From assembly GCA_965235115.1 (NCBI GenBank), contig OZ249436.1, forward strand, positions 21,888,001-21,952,000: DNA of 64,000 bases, written 5' to 3'. Positions within the stretch are counted from its first letter, which is position 1. The number at the start of each line of letters is the position of its first letter. Both the position numbers and the translations under genes were made by a program. The DNA is from Laetmonice hystrix (taxonomy: Eukaryota). Positions 32,592 to 60,153 of this stretch are shown here, piece by piece. Below the pieces are notes generated by a model. That model was not told where the DNA came from, made no database searches, and saw nothing but the letters and a program-made list of their open reading frames with translations.

Positions 32592-32936
32592 GCCGGGGAG
32601 CGGTTTGACGCGTTGTCGCCAGACGGCCTTCAGTGCACAAGGCTATAGGTGGCGCTGTGGTCACCGTAAGTAAACCAAGGTATATGCTGATAACAGAAGT
32701 ACATAAACATATTAGCCTATGTTGTTTTATCATAACAAAGAAAAAGAAAAGTTCCTTCTTTTAAATCAGCATTTATTGTGAAAAATAGCAAGCTTGGATA
32801 CCTTATCTCAGACCTAAGGCATTTTCCAGTAAGGACCCCCCCCCCCCAAATGAAACATTCGTAGATGAAAAGACACCATTCTGGATGAGTTAGGTACTTG
32901 AACCACTCGACACTTCCCCTGTTCAGTAAATCAGAG

Positions 32937-33000
32937 AACTCACGTTTCTCCTCATTCCACGTATAAATCTTTCGCCTTTTACTAAAGATTTCCGTGGGGA
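32937..33000 (+). pseudogene. U5: 5' part of a U5 gene interrupted by the retrotransposon
   Basis: U5 sequence through loop 1 to ...TTCCGTGGGGA, then an abrupt switch to non-array sequence. Confidence 0.95.
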
Positions 33001-33103
33001 TTTGGAGAATACGGAGAATTTGGGTTGATTTGGATCGATCAGTTGTTAGATTTTGGTGGTTTTCTCCTTTTGGAGTCGTAGGTTGGTCAGTTGCCTTGAA
33101 ACT

Positions 33104-33324
33104 ACCCTTGGGACCGGGTCATAATAGGTCCTTGGTTTCGTTTCTAGGCTGACCTTTCATACTGTCCGCGGGACCCGGAATATAATAGGTCCTTTTCTAT
33201 TTGCATCCGTGGGGACCCGGATTAAAATAGGTCTCTCGTTCGCTTGGGTATCTGGTGGTAGCTTCCAGCCCAACGTGATAATTCTTTATGTTAATCCGTA
33301 GAGGTCCGGAATAAAATAGGCCTC
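33104..33324 (+). other. Four tandem predicted H-type RNA pseudoknots in the retrotransposon 5' UTR
   Basis: Motifs at 33104-33131, 33165-33192, 33205-33236 and 33295-33324 have two interleaved stems with compensatory changes and an A-rich loop. Confidence 0.7.
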
Positions 33325-33440
33325 CTTTTCCTTTCCTTCTCTCTTCTTTCACCGTGTAAATGGTCTTAGTTGCCGTCACGGTGTAAGCCAACCTCTCCCC
33401 TTTTCAGTTAATTTTGTTTTCCGCCTGCCACCCCGGTGGC

Positions 33441-35027
33441 ATGGCGACAGGCATGGAATTTGATTCGGACGACACGGATTTGGCCCTGGTTATAGACGAT
33501 AATATGGCTTCAACAACTTCTCCTCTACCTGTTGCGAGGAGCAGTCAGGTGGCAGAAACGTCGGGCGTACAATCTGGAGGCATCTCCAAAGAGTTAGCCC
33601 ATCATAGTTTTCAGAGGGATTTGATCTTGTCCTCTGATGAGGACGGATGGTCGGTCCAGAAAAAGAAAACAAAAGGTGGTCGGAAGGTGGGAGGGAAAGT
33701 TTTCCCTACGTCGAAGCCAGATGGCGCGGCACCCCCATCCAAGACCGTTAAATTGAATTCAGGGCGCTCAAAGCCAGTAAAAGTATCGAGAGTAGGGCAA
33801 GACCCTGTCTTCCTGAAAAAACCCTTCTCAATTGAGGAGCAAAAGGTAAGGGCTGAAAGCCTCATTGAGAGAAGTGCGGTTTTTAAGTTTGTTGACCGGG
33901 GTAGCCCCATCTTGCGGGATGATTTTGCGGAGCCCTTGTCGGCACTGATCGATCTGAAGGAAGTTTTGTTTTTGGCCAGTATAGGTCGGGGTGACGAGTG
34001 GCACGTTACCCTGACAAATACTGCAGCGAAGGCAGCCCTCTTAACGAGTGATGGGTTTTGTGTGGGGGGACGTAGGTGCTACGTCAAAGAGGATGACACG
34101 CTTAAGGGTCGAGGAGGGACTTTCTGCTACCCGGTAGTGCGTGTACATTGGAATAGTCCTTCTTTACCTTTGAATGTCGTGCCAGATATCCTGGGGGTCC
34201 ATGGTGACATAATATCTGATGTCTTTGAAGAGTCGTCATCATCGCGATTCCCAGGGGTGTTAACTGGGGTCCGCAAACTAGTGTTTAAAATCCCTACTAA
34301 AGATAAGAGAGCCTTTTTGGAGGATCTCCCACATTTGCTTCACCCGGAGTTTGATGGGGTGAAGTTTCGCTTGTTGGTGGTGGTCAACGGCCGGAAACCT
34401 TTGTGTTTGAGGTGCCAGAAGATGGGCCATCAATCCAAAAAATGCCTCGAGACTGAGTACTGTTCGTTTTGTCGTCTCTATGGCCATAGTACGGGGGTGT
34501 GTCCTAGGAAGGGTTCCTATGCGGCAAAGCTCTTAAGTGTCCCTCAGCAAGAGGCAGATCCTGTCCCGCCGGAAGTACCGGTGGTGGAGGACGAGACGCC
34601 GCAAGGTGCAGCGGAGGGTGGTCAACAGGCTGAGCCTGTTGAGGTCCCACAGGGAGGTGATGGTGGAGAGGAGTCCACTCCTATCGATTTGTCTAGCGAA
34701 TCCATGGGACGGAAGTCTGAGCATCCCGTGCAAAAACATCAGGCCCCTATTAAAGTTTCCGAGGGCGACGTGGAACCCCCCCAACCCATTGTAGAGGGCG
34801 ACGTACCTCAGAAACTCGAGCCGGCCCCTCAGCGGGCAAGTAGGAGATCGGATAGAGGGAAACGCTCTCATGTTCCCCAGGGAGCCGTAGCGGGAGCCTT
34901 GGCAGGGCTTGCTCCTAGAGAGACCTCAGCTCCGCCAACTCTGAGGGCGAAGCTAGAACCCCATCTTGGGCCCAAGAGTCTTTTGGGGGCAGAAGGGCTT
35001 AAAGAGGGCTCTTTCCAGCCTCCCTGA
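33441..35027 (+). CDS. Retrotransposon ORF1, nucleic-acid-binding (gag-like) protein
   Basis: Open frame from 33414 (TTG); first ATG at 33441. Two CX2CX4HX4C knuckles (CLRCQKMGHQSKKC, CSFCRLYGHSTGVC), basic N-terminal patch, low-complexity C-terminus; typical of Tx1 ORF1. Confidence 0.9.
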   Translation: MATGMEFDSDDTDLALVIDDNMASTTSPLPVARSSQVAETSGVQSGGISKELAHHSFQRDLILSSDEDGWSVQKKKTKGGRKVGGKVFPTSKPDGAAPPSKTVKLNSGRSKPVKVSRVGQDPVFLKKPFSIEEQKVRAESLIERSAVFKFVDRGSPILRDDFAEPLSALIDLKEVLFLASIGRGDEWHVTLTNTAAKAALLTSDGFCVGGRRCYVKEDDTLKGRGGTFCYPVVRVHWNSPSLPLNVVPDILGVHGDIISDVFEESSSSRFPGVLTGVRKLVFKIPTKDKRAFLEDLPHLLHPEFDGVKFRLLVVVNGRKPLCLRCQKMGHQSKKCLETEYCSFCRLYGHSTGVCPRKGSYAAKLLSVPQQEADPVPPEVPVVEDETPQGAAEGGQQAEPVEVPQGGDGGEESTPIDLSSESMGRKSEHPVQKHQAPIKVSEGDVEPPQPIVEGDVPQKLEPAPQRASRRSDRGKRSHVPQGAVAGALAGLAPRETSAPPTLRAKLEPHLGPKSLLGAEGLKEGSFQPP

Positions 35028-35125
35028 GTTTATCCATTTCTTAGGTCTTATCGCACATTTTAGTTAAAATACCTTTTGAATCAATTATTTGCATTTCCAA
35101 CGCCTGACAAATTACAAATTACCTG

Positions 35126-38100
35126 ATGGCGAAGTCGTTCAAAATCACTTCACTGAACTGTAAAGGGTTACAGAATCCTATAAAGTGTGATCTTTTGGGC
35201 AGTTATCTGGCCACTAGATCTTTTGATGTCCTGTTCCTACAAGAGACACATGTGGGTGGGGCAGAGGATCAGGATCGTGTGGAGTCTGCCTGCGGTGGAT
35301 CCGGTGTTTTTAGCTTTGGCCAGTCAGATAGTTCCGGAGTGGCGGTGATTTTTAGACGAGGCCTTGAGTATGACATTAAATCGTCTAGATGCGATGACAG
35401 TGGCAGGGTCACTTCAGTAGTGGCGGAAATAAATGGCCAGGTTTTTAATTTTATCAATATATACGCTCCAAATATTGCTGTCCAGAGGAAAGCTTTTATT
35501 TCAGGCTTGGCAGACTTTGTCATGTTTGAAACAGCTGTAATTTTGGCTGGAGATTTTAACTTTATAGAGGATGTCTTCATGGATAAGAAAGGTGGGAACC
35601 CAAAGAGAGGTCTGGGGGGCAAAGTGGAAATGGAGGCCCTGGCCGGCAGATTTAATTTATTGGATGTCTTCAGACATAAAAACCCGTCGAGAAAGGAATT
35701 CTCCTTTTCTGGGGCAGGAGTAGCCACCAGGCTTGACCGGTTTTATGTTACCAAGGATTTAGTCGAGAATGTTGAGAATGTTGGGTATGTTCCCTGTTCG
35801 TATTCTGATCATAAGATAGTTGACATGCAGCTATCTTGGAAGAGTATATCTGAGGACTTTCGTCATTCAGGTCTTTGGAAATGTAATGTAACGGTTTTAA
35901 AGGATATTGATTTTGTGCGAGACATGGAAATGGAGTGGCAGGTTTTAAGCCAGTCCAAAGTCAAAGATATGGTTTGGTGGGAAGACTGTAAAGTCCGTTT
36001 TAAATCTTTAATAATTAAACATTCCAAGCGGTTGGCTCGACAACGTAGACAACATGTTTTGCAGCTTGAGAAGTCGATTCTTTTCTTTCAAGCATTGGCT
36101 GATGGGGGCTTGGAGGATTTGGAATGTGTAGTAGATGGTCTTAAACTGGACTTGGAGCATTTGTTAGAAGAAAAACTGAAAGGGGCTAGGATAAGATCTC
36201 GTGTTCAACACGTGGAGAATGACGAAAAGCCTTCCCGTTTTTTCCTGAAGCAGGAGAAAATGAATGGAAGCGCGAAGGTTATTTCCGAACTAGAGGTTGA
36301 AGGTCGAGTCATAACTGATAAAATGGACATAGTGGCAGCTTGTCGTAACTTTTATAAATGTCTGTATACGAAGGAAGACATTGATCGAGAGGTAGCACAG
36401 AAATACCTGGATCGTCTTCCTCGGTTGGCCTCTGAAGGTAGAGCAGAGTGCGAGGGGTTTTTAAGTAAGGAGGAAGTATTTTCTTCCCTAAAGTCCATGA
36501 AGGATGGGAAAAGTCCGGGTGAGGACGGCCTCCCCCAGGAATTTTATGTTGGATTTTTTCATCTGTTTGGTGGTGATTTAGTCAATGTTTTTAATCAAGC
36601 CTTTCACGCAGGCGTCTTAGGCGAGTCCCTTAGGACAGGAGTCATTAGATTGATCTGTAAAGATGTAACAAAAAAAGAGAATTTAGGTTACTGGAGGCCT
36701 ATTTCTCTTCTTAACACCGATTATAAACTTATTTCAAAGTCCATTTGTAATAGAATGGTCAAGGTGTTGGATGAAATAGTACATGAAGATCAGACGTGTG
36801 CCATTAAGGGAAGGACTATACATGATAGTTTACACTTAATTCGATCTGTCATTGACTATGCCAATGACCATGATATACCGTGTGGGATTTTGAGTCTAGA
36901 TCAGGAAAAGGCCTTTGATAGGGTTTCTCACGAGTTCCTTTTCATGGCTCTACGAAGTTATGGTTTTGGCCCCGATTTGATTAGATGGGTCCGCCTTTTG
37001 TATACGGACATTAGTTCAAGGGTGTTTGTCAATGGTATACTGTCAAATGAGTTTGAAGTCCAACGTTCGGTGAGACAAGGTTGTGGTCTGTCTCCCCTTT
37101 TATATGTTTTAGTTATCGAACCACTTGCAGTTATGATGAGAGCTGACTTCCGTATGGAAGGGCTCAAAATCCCTGGCTCACCAAGGACGGTTCAACTTGT
37201 GCACTATGCCGACGACATGAACCCAGTTGTTACATCGGAGAGAGCAGTGAGAGTCGCTCTGGAAATTGTTAATGAGTTTGGGCGGGCATCTGGGGCCAAG
37301 CTTAACAGACGCAAGTCAAAAGGCATGTGGGTTGGGAAGTGGAGGCACCGAAAGGGTGTTTTGCATGGTATTGATTTTAGTTGCGAAAGTTTAAAGTGTC
37401 TGGGAGTAGTTTTTGGTAGACACCAAAGTGAGTGGCAAAAATTGAATTGGGAACCGCTGGTCGAGAAATTGGCTAAAGTATTGGAAGGCTGGAAAGTTCG
37501 TAAAATGACGCTAGCAGGCAGAGCAGTTATTCTGAACACGGTGGCCTTATCCAAATTGTGGCACCGTGGACAAGTCATTCATATGAATGATAAGTACATT
37601 AAGAAGTTCGAGCGTATTATCTACAAGTTTCTTTGGCCTGGTGGGGCGGAGAGGGTCCAACGAAGAGTCATGGTTCTGGATAGAGTCAGGGGAGGTGTTG
37701 GCCTCGTCGACCTTGGCTCGAAGTTGGAATCATTTCGAATTAGCCATATTGGCAAGTTATTGAGAAGCCAGCTAGCCCAGAAATGGTCCGAGTTTGCTGT
37801 TTTTTATTGTGGTTTTCAGTTGAGGGCAGAAAGGCCCGAGTTTGGGAGTAATTCTAGACCTCATGCTTGGAACATTTCTCTCTTTTACGAAAGGTGTCTT
37901 CGGGAATGGAAGAAGTTTAATGAAAGTCAGAATGTCTCTTTGCAGAGCCTTACAAGTGGCGACATTTACAAAGTGTTGACCAAGAAATGGGTCATTGTGC
38001 CACTGGTTGCAACCAAGTCTGTGAACATTTTTGTTGATTTTAGTGTTTGTTGGAATAACTGTTGCCACTGGTTCCTCCCGTCGGAAATCAAAGAATTTGC

Positions 38101-38593
38101 CTGGCGGGTAGGGCAACATATACTCCCTGTTAATGACAAACTTCACAGGCACAACAAACGTTTACCTGTAAAGTGTGAACTATGTGGGGCGGGCAGGGAA
38201 ACTTTAGATCACATTTTATTGTTGTGTCCAGTTGTACGTCCGGTTGCAAGGGAAGTGGAGGTCTTGATCTCAGAGATCTTGGATGCTCCATTTTTCCTGG
38301 ACAGAGAAGTAATTTTATTCAATATTTTACCTCGGATGAGGGATCAGACACGGGGTCTGGTGTTGCTTCTCTTGAATTGTTTTAAGAGGGAGGTCTGGCA
38401 TCATCGTAATAGGGTTAAGTTGGGCTTGGCCAGACCTAACCCTGAAAGAGTGTGGTCGGCCCTGATGGCAGGGCTCAAGTGGAGGTTTTCTATTGATGTG
38501 TGTCGCCCTCAAAATACTAAATGGGTAGAAGCATGGGCAGTTGGAAAGGTTTGTGCGGGAAAAGTGGGTCAGGAATTTGTCTTCCTCTTGTAG
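35126..38593 (+). CDS. Retrotransposon ORF2: APE-type endonuclease, reverse transcriptase, C-terminal zinc finger (1155 aa)
   Basis: APE motifs SLNCKGL, FLQETH, NIYAPN, GDFN, RLDRFY, SDH. RT motifs KSPGEDG, WRPISLLNTDYK, LDQEKAFDRV, RQGCGLSPLLY, YADD. C-terminal CELC...HILLLC. Confidence 0.97.
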   Translation: MAKSFKITSLNCKGLQNPIKCDLLGSYLATRSFDVLFLQETHVGGAEDQDRVESACGGSGVFSFGQSDSSGVAVIFRRGLEYDIKSSRCDDSGRVTSVVAEINGQVFNFINIYAPNIAVQRKAFISGLADFVMFETAVILAGDFNFIEDVFMDKKGGNPKRGLGGKVEMEALAGRFNLLDVFRHKNPSRKEFSFSGAGVATRLDRFYVTKDLVENVENVGYVPCSYSDHKIVDMQLSWKSISEDFRHSGLWKCNVTVLKDIDFVRDMEMEWQVLSQSKVKDMVWWEDCKVRFKSLIIKHSKRLARQRRQHVLQLEKSILFFQALADGGLEDLECVVDGLKLDLEHLLEEKLKGARIRSRVQHVENDEKPSRFFLKQEKMNGSAKVISELEVEGRVITDKMDIVAACRNFYKCLYTKEDIDREVAQKYLDRLPRLASEGRAECEGFLSKEEVFSSLKSMKDGKSPGEDGLPQEFYVGFFHLFGGDLVNVFNQAFHAGVLGESLRTGVIRLICKDVTKKENLGYWRPISLLNTDYKLISKSICNRMVKVLDEIVHEDQTCAIKGRTIHDSLHLIRSVIDYANDHDIPCGILSLDQEKAFDRVSHEFLFMALRSYGFGPDLIRWVRLLYTDISSRVFVNGILSNEFEVQRSVRQGCGLSPLLYVLVIEPLAVMMRADFRMEGLKIPGSPRTVQLVHYADDMNPVVTSERAVRVALEIVNEFGRASGAKLNRRKSKGMWVGKWRHRKGVLHGIDFSCESLKCLGVVFGRHQSEWQKLNWEPLVEKLAKVLEGWKVRKMTLAGRAVILNTVALSKLWHRGQVIHMNDKYIKKFERIIYKFLWPGGAERVQRRVMVLDRVRGGVGLVDLGSKLESFRISHIGKLLRSQLAQKWSEFAVFYCGFQLRAERPEFGSNSRPHAWNISLFYERCLREWKKFNESQNVSLQSLTSGDIYKVLTKKWVIVPLVATKSVNIFVDFSVCWNNCCHWFLPSEIKEFAWRVGQHILPVNDKLHRHNKRLPVKCELCGAGRETLDHILLLCPVVRPVAREVEVLISEILDAPFFLDREVILFNILPRMRDQTRGLVLLLLNCFKREVWHHRNRVKLGLARPNPERVWSALMAGLKWRFSIDVCRPQNTKWVEAWAVGKVCAGKVGQEFVFLL

Positions 38594-38871
38594 AATAGTT
38601 CACCCCCCTTTTTTTAAAGGATATGGTCGGTGCATATTGAAGGATTGTTGAAATGGTGGAGTATTCCTTGAGTGTGCAGGTTTTAATGTTTGAGTGTTGC
38701 CACTTGGGAGTTTTTAACTAGTCAACTCTAGCCTTTTTCAATTTTCCTTTTGTACTTAGTTTGCTCTTTACTATATTGTCTGGCATGTAGGCTTTAGGGT
38801 CTGGTGCCAGGGTTATCGTTAAGAGTAGTTATTGGTTTTTAGAGTCTTTTATAAAAAAAAAAAAAAAAAAA

Positions 38872-38945
38872 AAAGATTTCCGTGGGGAGGAACATTACAA
38901 TGAGTCTATAGACGAATTTTTGCATCCCTGCTCTAAGAGCGGGGT
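38872..38945 (+). pseudogene. U5: 3' part of the interrupted U5 gene (variant A)
   Basis: AAAGATTTCCGTGGGGAGGAAC, Sm site and 3' hairpin resume right after the poly(A). Confidence 0.95.
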
Positions 38946-59137: not shown

Positions 59138-59697
59138 AATTTTATTCAATATTTTACCTCGGATGAGGGATCAGACACAAGGTCTAGTGTTACTTCTCTT
59201 AAATTGTTTTAAGAGGGAGGTCTGGCATCATCGTAATAGGGTTAAGTTGGGCTTGGCCAGACCTAACCCTGAGAGAGTGTGGTCGGCCCTGATGGCAGGG
59301 CTCAAGTGGAGGTTTTCTATTGATGTGTGTCGCCCTCAAAATACAAAATGGGTAGAAGCATGGGCAGTTGGAAAGGTTTGTGCGGGAAAAGTGGGTGAGG
59401 AATTTGTCTTCCTCTTGTAGAATAGTTCACCCCCCTTTTTTTAAAGGATATGGTCGGTGCATATTGAAGGATTGTTGAAATGGTGGAGTATTCCTTGAGT
59501 GTGCAGGTTTTAATGTTTGAGTGTTGCCACTTGGGAGTTTTTAACTAGTCAACTCTAGCCTTTTTCAATTTTCCTTTTGTACTTAGTTTGCTCTTTACTA
59601 TATTGTCCGGCATGTAGGCTTTAGGGTCTGGTGCCAGGGTTATCGTTAAGAGTAGTTATTGGTTTTTAGAGTCTTTTATAAATAAAATAAAAAAAAA
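59138..59697 (+). mobile_element. 5'-truncated copy (~560 bp) of the retrotransposon: ORF2 C-terminus, 3' UTR, A-rich tail
   Basis: Colinear with 38311-38871; tail ATAAATAAAATAAAAAAAAAAAA is followed by the U5 target GATTTCCGTGGG. Confidence 0.95.
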
Positions 59698-60153
59698 AAA
59701 GATTTCCGTGGGATTTGGAGAATACGGAGAATTTGGGTTGATTTGGATCGATCAGTTGTTAGCTTTTGGTGGTTTTCTCCTTTTGGAGTCGTAGGTTGGT
59801 CAGTTGACTTGAAACTACCCTTGGGACCGGGTCATAATAGGTCCTTGGTTTCGTTTCTAGGCTGACCTTTCATACTGTCCGCGGGACCCGGAATATAATA
59901 GGTCCTTTTCTATTTGCATCCGTGGGGACCCGGATTAAAATAGGTCTCTCGTTCGCTTGGGTATCTGGTGGTAGCTTCCAGCCCAACGTGATAATTCTTT
60001 ATGTTAATCCGTAGAGGTCCGGAATAAAATAGGCCTCCTTTTCCTTTCCTTCTCTCTTCTTTCACCGTGTAAATGGTCTTAGTTGCCGTCACGGTGTAAG
60101 CCAACCTCTCCCCTTTTCAGTTAATTTTGTTTTCCGCCTGCCACTCCGGTGGC

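Follow-up and report, generated by a model that had tools for sequence, protein, structure and literature searches.

The DNA examined here is a 64,000-nucleotide (nt) stretch of contig OZ249436.1 of Laetmonice hystrix (assembly GCA_965235115.1, positions 21,888,001 to 21,952,000 of the forward strand; hereafter the window), and it holds 25 U5 small nuclear RNA (snRNA) genes in tandem, 24 of them intact (91.7 bits in Rfam at the gathering score) and one interrupted (51.3 bits). The interruption is a full-length Tx1/L1-like non-LTR (LTR, long terminal repeat) retrotransposon of about 5.9 kb, called copy 1, whose 5' untranslated region (UTR) contains four tandem motifs (PK1 to PK4) that an earlier inspection of the letters, the sequence-only reading, had described as H-type pseudoknots; these motifs, termed knots below, are the subject of this report. 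The insertion is flanked by a 14-nt target-site duplication, AGATTTCCGTGGGG, present at 32986-32999 and again at 38874-38887, behind a poly(A) stretch that starts at about 38853. The same U5 position, with the 14-nt duplication, is occupied in the window and in U5 arrays on other contigs, and the element is thus site-specific. An AP-type endonuclease and a reverse transcriptase, as expected of a Tx1-type site-specific long interspersed element (LINE), are encoded in open reading frame (ORF) 2 (Pfam: Exo_endo_phos 1.6e-11, RVT_1 8.5e-36, zf-RVT 6e-9), and ORF1 matched no Pfam family at E 0.001, with zf-CCHC appearing below threshold only, at E 0.13. We call the carrier Tx1-like, a label that rests on domain order and type of target. 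U5 is among the targets of Tx1-clade elements (Kojima 2015, PMC4494074), so the carrier is probably of a known and ordinary kind; the U5-targeting families of that paper are likewise LINEs with an AP-type endonuclease and a reverse transcriptase at one site of the U5 gene, and its U5 and Tx1 passages give the target only, with no mention of UTR structure.

The four motif strings were found exactly where the sequence-only reading had placed them, reading as it had written them, and all of its pairings were correct when checked by hand (Table 1). The second copy was likewise unchanged, with 0 differences in 221 positions between 33104-33324 and 59817-60037. In a repeat search of the window the four knots form one direct-repeat family, in which unrelated spacers of 10 to 58 nt lie between modules of 28-32 nt, and PK1 begins 104 nt inside the element. 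Each knot has the strand order of an H-type pseudoknot, the two strands of stem 1 interleaved with those of stem 2. Stem 1 pairs as ACCC/GGGU in PK1, UCCG/CGGA in PK2 and PK4, and AUCCG/CGGAU in PK3, and stem 2 as GGACC/GGUCC in PK1 and PK2, GGGGACC/GGUCUCU with two G.U pairs in PK3, and GAGGUC/GGCCUC with one U.G pair in PK4. The compact geometry proposed earlier stood for loop 2, which is 0 nt long, but has to be corrected for PK1 and PK2, in which stem 2 can be extended to 6 base pairs (bp; GGGACC/GGUCCU, with a terminal G.U) and loop 1 is then 2 and 1 nt, respectively. Overall, loop 1 (1-3 nt) crosses 5-7 bp and loop 3 (7-8 nt) crosses 4-5 bp; judged from general knowledge, these lengths are adequate for a short loop 1 to span the groove of stem 2 and a longer loop 3 that of stem 1.

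The energy of each knot was calculated with a script that finds the best H-type pseudoknot from stem stacking alone, and the resulting stems-only values of -21.1, -20.4, -21.8 and -19.4 kcal/mol for PK1 to PK4 are to be read as estimates of net stability; among 500 dinucleotide shuffles of each motif, 1, 1, 1 and 0 did as well. Nested folding of the single motifs returned stem 2 hairpins only (-7.4 to -10.4 kcal/mol), which were not significant (z -0.6 to +0.05). Nested folding of the whole leader gave z of about -3 on both strands, and a nested fold therefore cannot tell the strand.

Table 1. Features of the window that bear on the knots (MFE, minimum free energy; knot strings are written in strand order, stem 1, loop 1, stem 2, stem 1, loop 3, stem 2).
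Feature	Positions	Strand	Basis or remark
PK1, ACCC-UU(G)-GGACC-GGGU-CAUAAUA-GGUCC	33104..33131	+	nearly invariant in leaders about 80% identical
PK2, UCCG-C(G)-GGACC-CGGA-AUAUAAUA-GGUCC	33165..33192	+	sequence, energy, alignment with relatives
PK3, AUCCG-U-GGGGACC-CGGAU-UAAAAUA-GGUCUCU	33205..33236	+	sequence, energy
PK4, UCCG-UA-GAGGUC-CGGA-AUAAAAUA-GGCCUC	33295..33324	+	aligns with modules of L026 and L022
PK1 domain: outer helix 33085-33092/33147-33154, inner helix 33098-33103/33134-33139	33085..33154	+	MFE fold
PK1 of copy 2	59817..59844	+	same as copy 1
PK2 of copy 2	59878..59905	+	same as copy 1
PK3 of copy 2	59918..59949	+	same as copy 1
PK4 of copy 2	60008..60037	+	same as copy 1
U5 snRNA gene, interrupted, 5' part	32938..32999	+	Rfam U5 match 32938-33051
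Full-length U5-specific Tx1/L1-like non-LTR retrotransposon, copy 1	33000..38873	+	junctions, ORF2 domains
Element 5' end predicted to complete a U5-like fold	33000..33051	+	Rfam U5 model, MFE fold
Hairpin GCCAC-CCCG-GUGGC adjoining the ORF1 AUG (33441-33443)	33427..33443	+	window sequence
ORF1	33441..35027	+	two C-X2-C-X4-H-X4-C knuckles, by eye
ORF2	35126..38593	+	endonuclease, reverse transcriptase, zf-RVT

Comparison of the window leader with leaders that are about 80% identical to it showed that PK1 and PK2 are nearly invariant, and modules corresponding to PK4 have stem 2 as GAGGCC/GGCCUC in L026 and as GGGGCC/GGCCUC in L022. PK1, PK2 and PK4 can be aligned between leaders, and the spacers around them align poorly or not at all; the knots are islands of conservation between diverged leaders. 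Two further helices had been proposed to enclose PK1. Both are present in the MFE fold, and the outer one carries one compensatory change (GGUCAG/CUGACC in the window, GGCCAG/CUGGCC in the relatives about 80% identical), but the outer helix is missing around the duplicated PK1 module of three loci (L026, L027 and L030).

To follow pairing across the genome, all unique 37-mers matching CCGG...AWAATAGG in the examined loci (n = 80) were aligned with MAFFT, which introduced no gaps; this selection is unconditioned on the 5' strand of stem 1, on most of the 5' strand of stem 2 and on the 3' strand of stem 2 beyond its first two bases. In stem 2, 82.1% of cells were paired, against 73.3 +- 1.1 in shuffled alignments, 74 cells were changed on both sides, against 36.4 +- 4.0, and the covariation score was 0.360, against 0.227 (0/500 shuffles in each case); when the partner strand was slid by -1 or +1, pairing fell to 49.3% and 60.5%, respectively. 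Typical spectra of single stem 2 pairs were G-C 43, A-U 16, G.U 12 and other 9, and G-C 36, A-U 15, G.U 9 and other 20. Stem 1 had to be assessed in register classes because the length of loop 1 varies, and these classes were set by the position of the invariant CCG, independently of pairing. For 34 variants in one register, 84.6% of cells of the two stems were paired, against 77.1 +- 1.1 in shuffles (0/500) and 57.6% at either slide, with C-G 13, U-A 8 and other 13 at pair 4 of stem 1 and U-A 11, A-U 8 and other 15 at pair 5; 27 further variants in a second register were 91.7% paired, against 88.3 +- 0.6 (0/500). The 19 rows outside the stem 1 test comprise ten of PK1 type, four in which the CCG falls one column further on, and five that are odd or chance-like. 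The claim that both stems change sequence yet keep pairing, made from four paralogs, thus extends genome-wide to 80 variants judged by shuffled and slid controls, many of them with mismatches.

The consensus that emerges has a stem 1 of 3-5 bp built on a CCG/CGG core, a loop 1 of 1-3 nt, a loop 2 of 0 nt, a stem 2 of 5-7 bp starting CC/GG and an A-rich loop 3 ending AAUA. With strand order, and with helices that beat both kinds of control, sequence, energy and covariation together indicate that each motif would fold as a compact H-type pseudoknot of 28-32 nt in the sense-strand RNA of a retroposon. The structural case is solid.

The 627-Mb assembly was scanned with the pattern CCGGNNNAWAATAGGYC, which fixes just the start of the 3' strand of stem 1, loop 3 and the start of the 3' strand of stem 2, and 391 matches (189 + 202) were obtained, against 20 (11 + 9) for the reversed control. 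These divide into 103 with a base other than G after CCGG, 57 with G and then a base other than A, and 231 of CCGGGA type. Families were described from 20 representative regions and a few more among the pattern matches. A search with the leader DNA recovered six near-identical full leaders nearby and one more on another contig, as well as leaders about 80% identical, at the same U5 position, in arrays of other U5 variants on contigs 1, 3 and 13 and as single copies on contigs 2 and 10; related leaders also occur outside intact U5 genes on contigs 2, 3 and 12. The U5 element of the window has four knots in its 5' UTR, and the diverged U5-type leaders have one to four in the same place, some of them duplicated along with their flanks. 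The elements in the other U5-variant arrays were seen to be deletion derivatives, in which a PK1 and PK2 leader is fused to an internal part of ORF1 with many stops (L013 and L020, C1:22.66 Mb; L008-L019, C3:6.26-6.30 Mb and C13:27.92 Mb); because they recur at the array period, they probably multiplied together with the array rather than through retrotransposition.

A second Tx1-like family carries the knots at its other end. Its copies are inserted in histone H2B coding sequence and have six to about ten knots in the 3' UTR, for example ACCCG-U-GAAAGCC-CGGGU-UAUAAUA-GGCUUUC, behind a frame that is 31% identical to residues 798-1139 of the window ORF2 (E 4e-55) and stops about 180 nt short of the first knot. 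The array is followed by approximately 130 nt, a poly(A) stretch and H2B codons, and two different H2B positions are used among the copies. At three loci an open ORF1 of 572-581 codons, 45% identical to that of the window, lies 5402-5403 nt upstream of a pattern match. In the one copy in which the leader was examined, the roughly 117 nt from the junction to the ORF1 AUG hold no knot. The six-knot arrays of L075-L077 were considered as a short non-autonomous element and rejected as such, as the DNA upstream identifies them as the 3' UTR of the full-size H2B-specific element, which also has 5'-truncated copies. A literature search for histone-targeting Tx1 elements turned up no paper on them.

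Two further settings contain knots. A dispersed repeat of about 360 nt that resembles a short interspersed element (SINE) has a single knot, UCCCG-UU-GGGACC-CGGGA-UAAAAUA-GGUCCC in L059, about 85-120 nt before its 3' end. A first look gave 794 candidates for this repeat, 40 of which were scored; among these 40 strongest non-self matches, 25 end at query positions 480-497, 15 start at 125-130 and the starts of the other 25 are spread over 137-513, all but one of them within 137-282. In satellite-like regions the knots are spaced 94-118 nt apart or further (e.g., UUCCG-UU-UGGGGCC-CGGAG-AAAAAUA-GGCCCCA). Within one such region, tandem units of about 60 nt that start like a tRNA D-arm, GGCUGAGUGGUUAGAGG, were also noted (L066:560-1100 and 1450-1830). 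No reverse transcriptase was detected with Pfam in 122 open frames of six knot-bearing loci, which yielded two histone fragments and weak sub-threshold matches judged to be due to chance.

Wherever orientation could be read, that is, in the U5 families, the SINE-like repeat and the H2B family, the knot lies in the sense strand; the references were ORFs, poly(A), or a constant 3' end with variable 5' ends, and the satellite-like family was left out. These data show that the knot is a portable module: its copy number runs from one to about ten, both UTRs can hold it, and it occurs in autonomous elements as well as short non-coding retroposons. The sequence-only reading had inferred a selected RNA module, and energy, covariation and sense orientation support a selected and structured one in the sense strand. 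That the module is a feature of the 5' leader as such is not supported, given the same module in the 3' UTR of the H2B family, whose own leader is knot-free, and in the SINE-like repeat. The same two locations exclude a leader-specific device as the common function and argue against two of the three suggested roles in that same capacity, a 5'-exonuclease block for the whole RNA and an initiation element for transcripts begun at an snRNA promoter.

The third suggestion, a loading site for the ORF1 or ORF2 protein, appears to fit best, and the interpretation we favour builds on it. Because the knots are position-independent, sense-oriented and covarying, because the ORF1 protein has two CCHC knuckles, and because R2 provides a precedent, the knot may be the place where a protein from the machinery of retrotransposition docks. 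Arrays would then act as a multivalent platform that tags an RNA for assembly into a retrotransposition particle regardless of where the array lies, the likeliest partner would be the zinc-knuckle ORF1 protein or the reverse transcriptase of the element, and knot-bearing non-coding repeats would borrow the same machinery. A position-independent, sense-strand RNA module that docks a protein is the best reading of what the knots would do; that such docking commits the RNA to a retrotransposition particle is put forward tentatively, with a probability somewhat short of even. In the precedent, as described for R2Tg, target-primed reverse transcription starts with the recognition of a small 3' UTR pseudoknot by the R2 protein (PMC12222951). 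The likeness consists of a compact UTR pseudoknot with an adjacent A-rich single strand in a site-specific non-LTR retrotransposon, for recognition by a protein, which is predicted in the present case. R2, an element with a restriction-like endonuclease, has one copy at the extreme 3' end by the priming site; in the Tx1-like elements described here, with an AP-type endonuclease, there are 1 to about 10 knots, which sit in the 5' UTR or else no closer than 130 nt to the poly(A), and binding is putative.

Several observations weigh against the docking interpretation or the fold beneath it. The U5-family array and the priming site are 5.5 kb apart, which sets the array off from known elements recognised by reverse transcriptases, and the tail of the SINE-like repeat consists of ACTC-type repeats with no poly(A), so this repeat was probably moved by a different LINE and a host factor fits it better than a Tx1 protein. 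For stem 2 of the 80 variants, two of the five measures showed no excess over shuffles: pairs in which both sides change numbered 5, against 5.0, and further pair types 15, against 15.2. Further pair types were not in excess in the 34-variant class either (500/500). Only 28 of the 80 variants combine an uninterrupted stem 1 of at least 4 bp with a stem 2 of at least 5 bp; with stem 1 relaxed to at least 3 bp the figure is 48/80, against 11/41 for chance matches in metagenomes (2/41 at the stricter cut-off). Pair 4 of stem 1 is a C.A mismatch in 17 of 67 standard-register variants, mostly satellite copies, and one satellite-like subtype always has A.A inside stem 2. G.U outnumbers A.C by 31 to 15 in stem 2 but by 24 to 20 in stem 1, and this wobble excess in one stem, not in the other, supports the sense strand moderately. 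Finally, all variants are paralogs of one genome, and relatedness alone can beat shuffles; the slid controls keep the relatedness yet fall well below the true register.

An identity with the reverse transcriptase recognition element at the 3' end of R2-type LINEs was rejected, as the knots of the U5 family lie 5.5 kb, and the last knot of the H2B family about 130 nt, from the poly(A).

A related interpretation, possible but on balance doubtful, holds that the knot is a portable tag swapped among unrelated LINE and SINE-like families, where it would act from either UTR and recruit a common factor that selects RNAs for reverse transcription; the ribosome, an elongation factor or a shared ORF1-type chaperone are candidates for that factor. 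A comparable case is Alu RNA, the 5' domain of which is bound by SRP9/14 (PMC12265939): in both, a small pseudoknotted fold in the RNA of a non-autonomous retroposon docks a protein, as predicted here. Alu differs in being 7SL-derived, in its fold and sequence, and in having a known host-protein partner. LINE UTR pieces common to short non-autonomous repeats are also the subject of a survey of LINE-derived SINE modules, which reports 5' parts from the RTE and Vingi clades only (Kojima 2018, PMC5786205). Unlike those, the carrier here is Tx1-like and the shared piece is a structured knot of about 30 nt with no long homologous stretch.

The main rival, conceivable although we consider it unlikely, is that a host protein or the ribosome is brought in by the knots and raises the stability, export or cap-independent translation of atypical RNA polymerase II transcripts, namely RNAs co-transcribed with U5 snRNA or histone genes. 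The knots would act from either UTR, as is the case for viral translation enhancers and for the tandem pseudoknots in the 3' UTRs of tobamoviruses. Position independence is as expected under this explanation, and U5 and histone genes are both established to yield non-polyadenylated RNAs. The presence of the knot in a repeat with a tail other than poly(A), hence in elements moved by different machineries, points the same way, and four stable knots before ORF1 would be expected to hinder scanning, so that another route of initiation would help. Translation, however, is not needed by non-coding repeats, and the H2B family seems to solve initiation without knots, by way of a short upstream frame that ends 2 codons past the junction; nor was there any similarity to Rfam cis-regulatory families at E up to 10 in 32900-33460.

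The remaining explanations are improbable. If each knot stalled a 5'-3' exonuclease such as XRN1 and shielded the RNA downstream, compact tandem knots would be suitable, and from the U5-family leader they would cover all of the coding RNA; the knots of the H2B family and of the SINE-like repeat, however, are downstream of nearly everything that needs protection, no xrRNA (exonuclease-resistant RNA) family of Rfam matched at E up to 10, and the extra helix that forms the ring is not evident. Equally improbable is a short GC-rich repeat with no function of its own, spread by recombination and with pairing inherited from a palindromic ancestor. In keeping with it, 52 of 80 variants lack the uninterrupted stem 1 of at least 4 bp and stem 2 of at least 5 bp, and all data are paralogs from one genome; but compensatory changes in both stems exceed shuffled and slid controls, diverged leaders keep the modules as conserved islands, and chance metagenome matches to a similar pattern fold in 2/41 only. 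That the knots act as DNA, as promoter or transcription-factor modules with a TATA-like ATAAAATA between inverted repeats after the manner of mouse L1 monomers, is the least probable of all, since the repeated leader units, the A/T-rich TATA-like core and the arrays with 94-118 nt periods elsewhere are outweighed by interleaved complementary segments that vary by compensating substitutions, including G.U, where a protein site would keep its sequence, by arrays in the 3' UTR of another family and by a module deep within a repeat of about 360 nt.

The knots were also compared with known RNA families. In Rfam, the whole window matched U5 only at the gathering score, nothing relevant was detected in 32900-33460 at E up to 10, and four loci of other knot-bearing families gave one unrelated weak match only at E up to 1. 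Identities rejected on this ground include HDV-like (hepatitis delta virus-like) ribozymes (no family reaches the gathering score anywhere in the window, and none appears in 32900-33460 at E up to 10) and, in 32900-33460 at E up to 10, the covariance models of xrRNA families, preQ1-I and other small pseudoknot riboswitches. Tandem xrRNAs are present in flaviviruses and small xrRNAs in plant viruses, and the mouse L1 5' UTR is composed of tandem promoter monomers; monomers of that type are unlikely here, where the modules are 28-32 nt long with unrelated spacers and also occur in a 3' UTR. Tobamovirus 3' UTRs contain tandem small H-type pseudoknots, the upstream pseudoknot domain, before a tRNA-like end. 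They resemble the present arrays in being small H-type pseudoknots arrayed in a UTR, and differ in being viral, directly before a tRNA-like end and in another host kingdom; the resemblance is structural and does not come from sequence comparison. HDV-like ribozymes are found at the 5' ends of the co-transcribed LINEs R2 and L1Tc (PMC3774820, PMC3185411). As described in these papers, they too are pseudoknotted RNAs of the 5' region, in site-specific elements that share a transcript with a host RNA gene, but they are catalytic double pseudoknots of 60 nt or more placed exactly on the 5' junction, and the first knot lies 104 nt into the element.

In metagenomes, the pattern GGNCCCGGNNNAWAATAGGNCC had 41 matches that appear to be due to chance, with a complementary middle pair in 16/41 against about 15 expected and a fold in 2/41; viral contigs gave 0 matches, and ORF1 had no relative among the metagenome contigs searched. 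The sequence-only reading knew of no such array described before, and this agrees with Rfam and with the literature searched: no paper describing a knot module of this kind in retroposon UTRs was found among the titles and abstract openings covered, literal motif strings returned only unrelated primer matches, judged by title, and no defined UTR recognition structure for Tx1-type elements was found. Closest in concept are the UTR recognition elements known from LINEs, and SINE bodies derived from LINEs.

UTR structures decide which RNAs are copied by the LINE machinery, and few are defined beyond R2 and a few stringent LINEs. A small, sharply bounded knot with natural variants of its stems is an unusually clean experimental handle, and its presence in autonomous elements and non-coding repeats opens tests of RNA recognition and of parasitism of LINEs by SINEs. 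It bears on the long-standing puzzle of conserved internal domains in unrelated SINEs; were the portable-tag interpretation true, the knot would be in structural terms what the SRP9/14-binding domain is to Alu, and would explain concretely why SINE bodies are conserved. Engineered systems for site-specific insertion might also use it as a compact RNA tag.

The 5' end of the element has a structure of its own. The Rfam U5 model aligns end to end over 32938-33051, across the junction, at 51.3 bits against a gathering score of 40. The start of the element re-pairs stem I of U5, GGAGAAUACGGAG pairing with the U5 5' strand, and a small hairpin closes the fold; ahead of that hairpin are stretches that resemble Sm sites (AAUUUGGG, GAUUUGG and GAUUUUGG). 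The first 40 nt or so of the element are kept in families about 80% identical. The modelled fold points to an RNA co-transcribed from the U5 promoter, which would mimic U5, and the completion of the interrupted gene by approximately 50 nt of U5-like sequence lends some indirect support to an RNA start at that promoter.

In the H2B family, insertion is in the N-terminal coding part of H2B genes (L094:1096-1250; L095 with L076; C5:13.65 Mb; C13:7.65 Mb). Two codons past the junction the H2B frame reaches a TAG, about 110 nt ahead of the ORF1 AUG; there are hints that ORF1 could be translated by reinitiation after this short upstream frame.

A full-length copy 2 of the U5 element begins near 59700, in spacer DNA outside the U5 genes. 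The region 59138-59712 is composite, with a 5'-truncated copy and its poly(A), then 13 nt of U5 target and then the full-length copy, the whole inserted in A-rich spacer; this is as expected for a retrotransposed read-through transcript of two tandem elements. The hairpin before the ORF1 AUG has a constant 5-bp stem and a variable loop, CCCG in copy 1, of CTCCG type in copy 2 and TTCG in L022 and L026. At PK3 and PK4, a U-rich stretch upstream of stem 1 can pair with the 3' strand of stem 1 and loop 3 (33197-33230 and 33287-33319), and a two-state fold, with an extended hairpin competing with stem 2, is possible there; no such hairpin was seen for PK1 or PK2. By eye, a pyrimidine-rich tract directly follows most knots on the 3' side (e.g., CUUUUCUAUUU and CUUUUCCUUUCCUUCUCUCUUCUUUC; window 33193-33204 and 33325-33350, L076:480-600).

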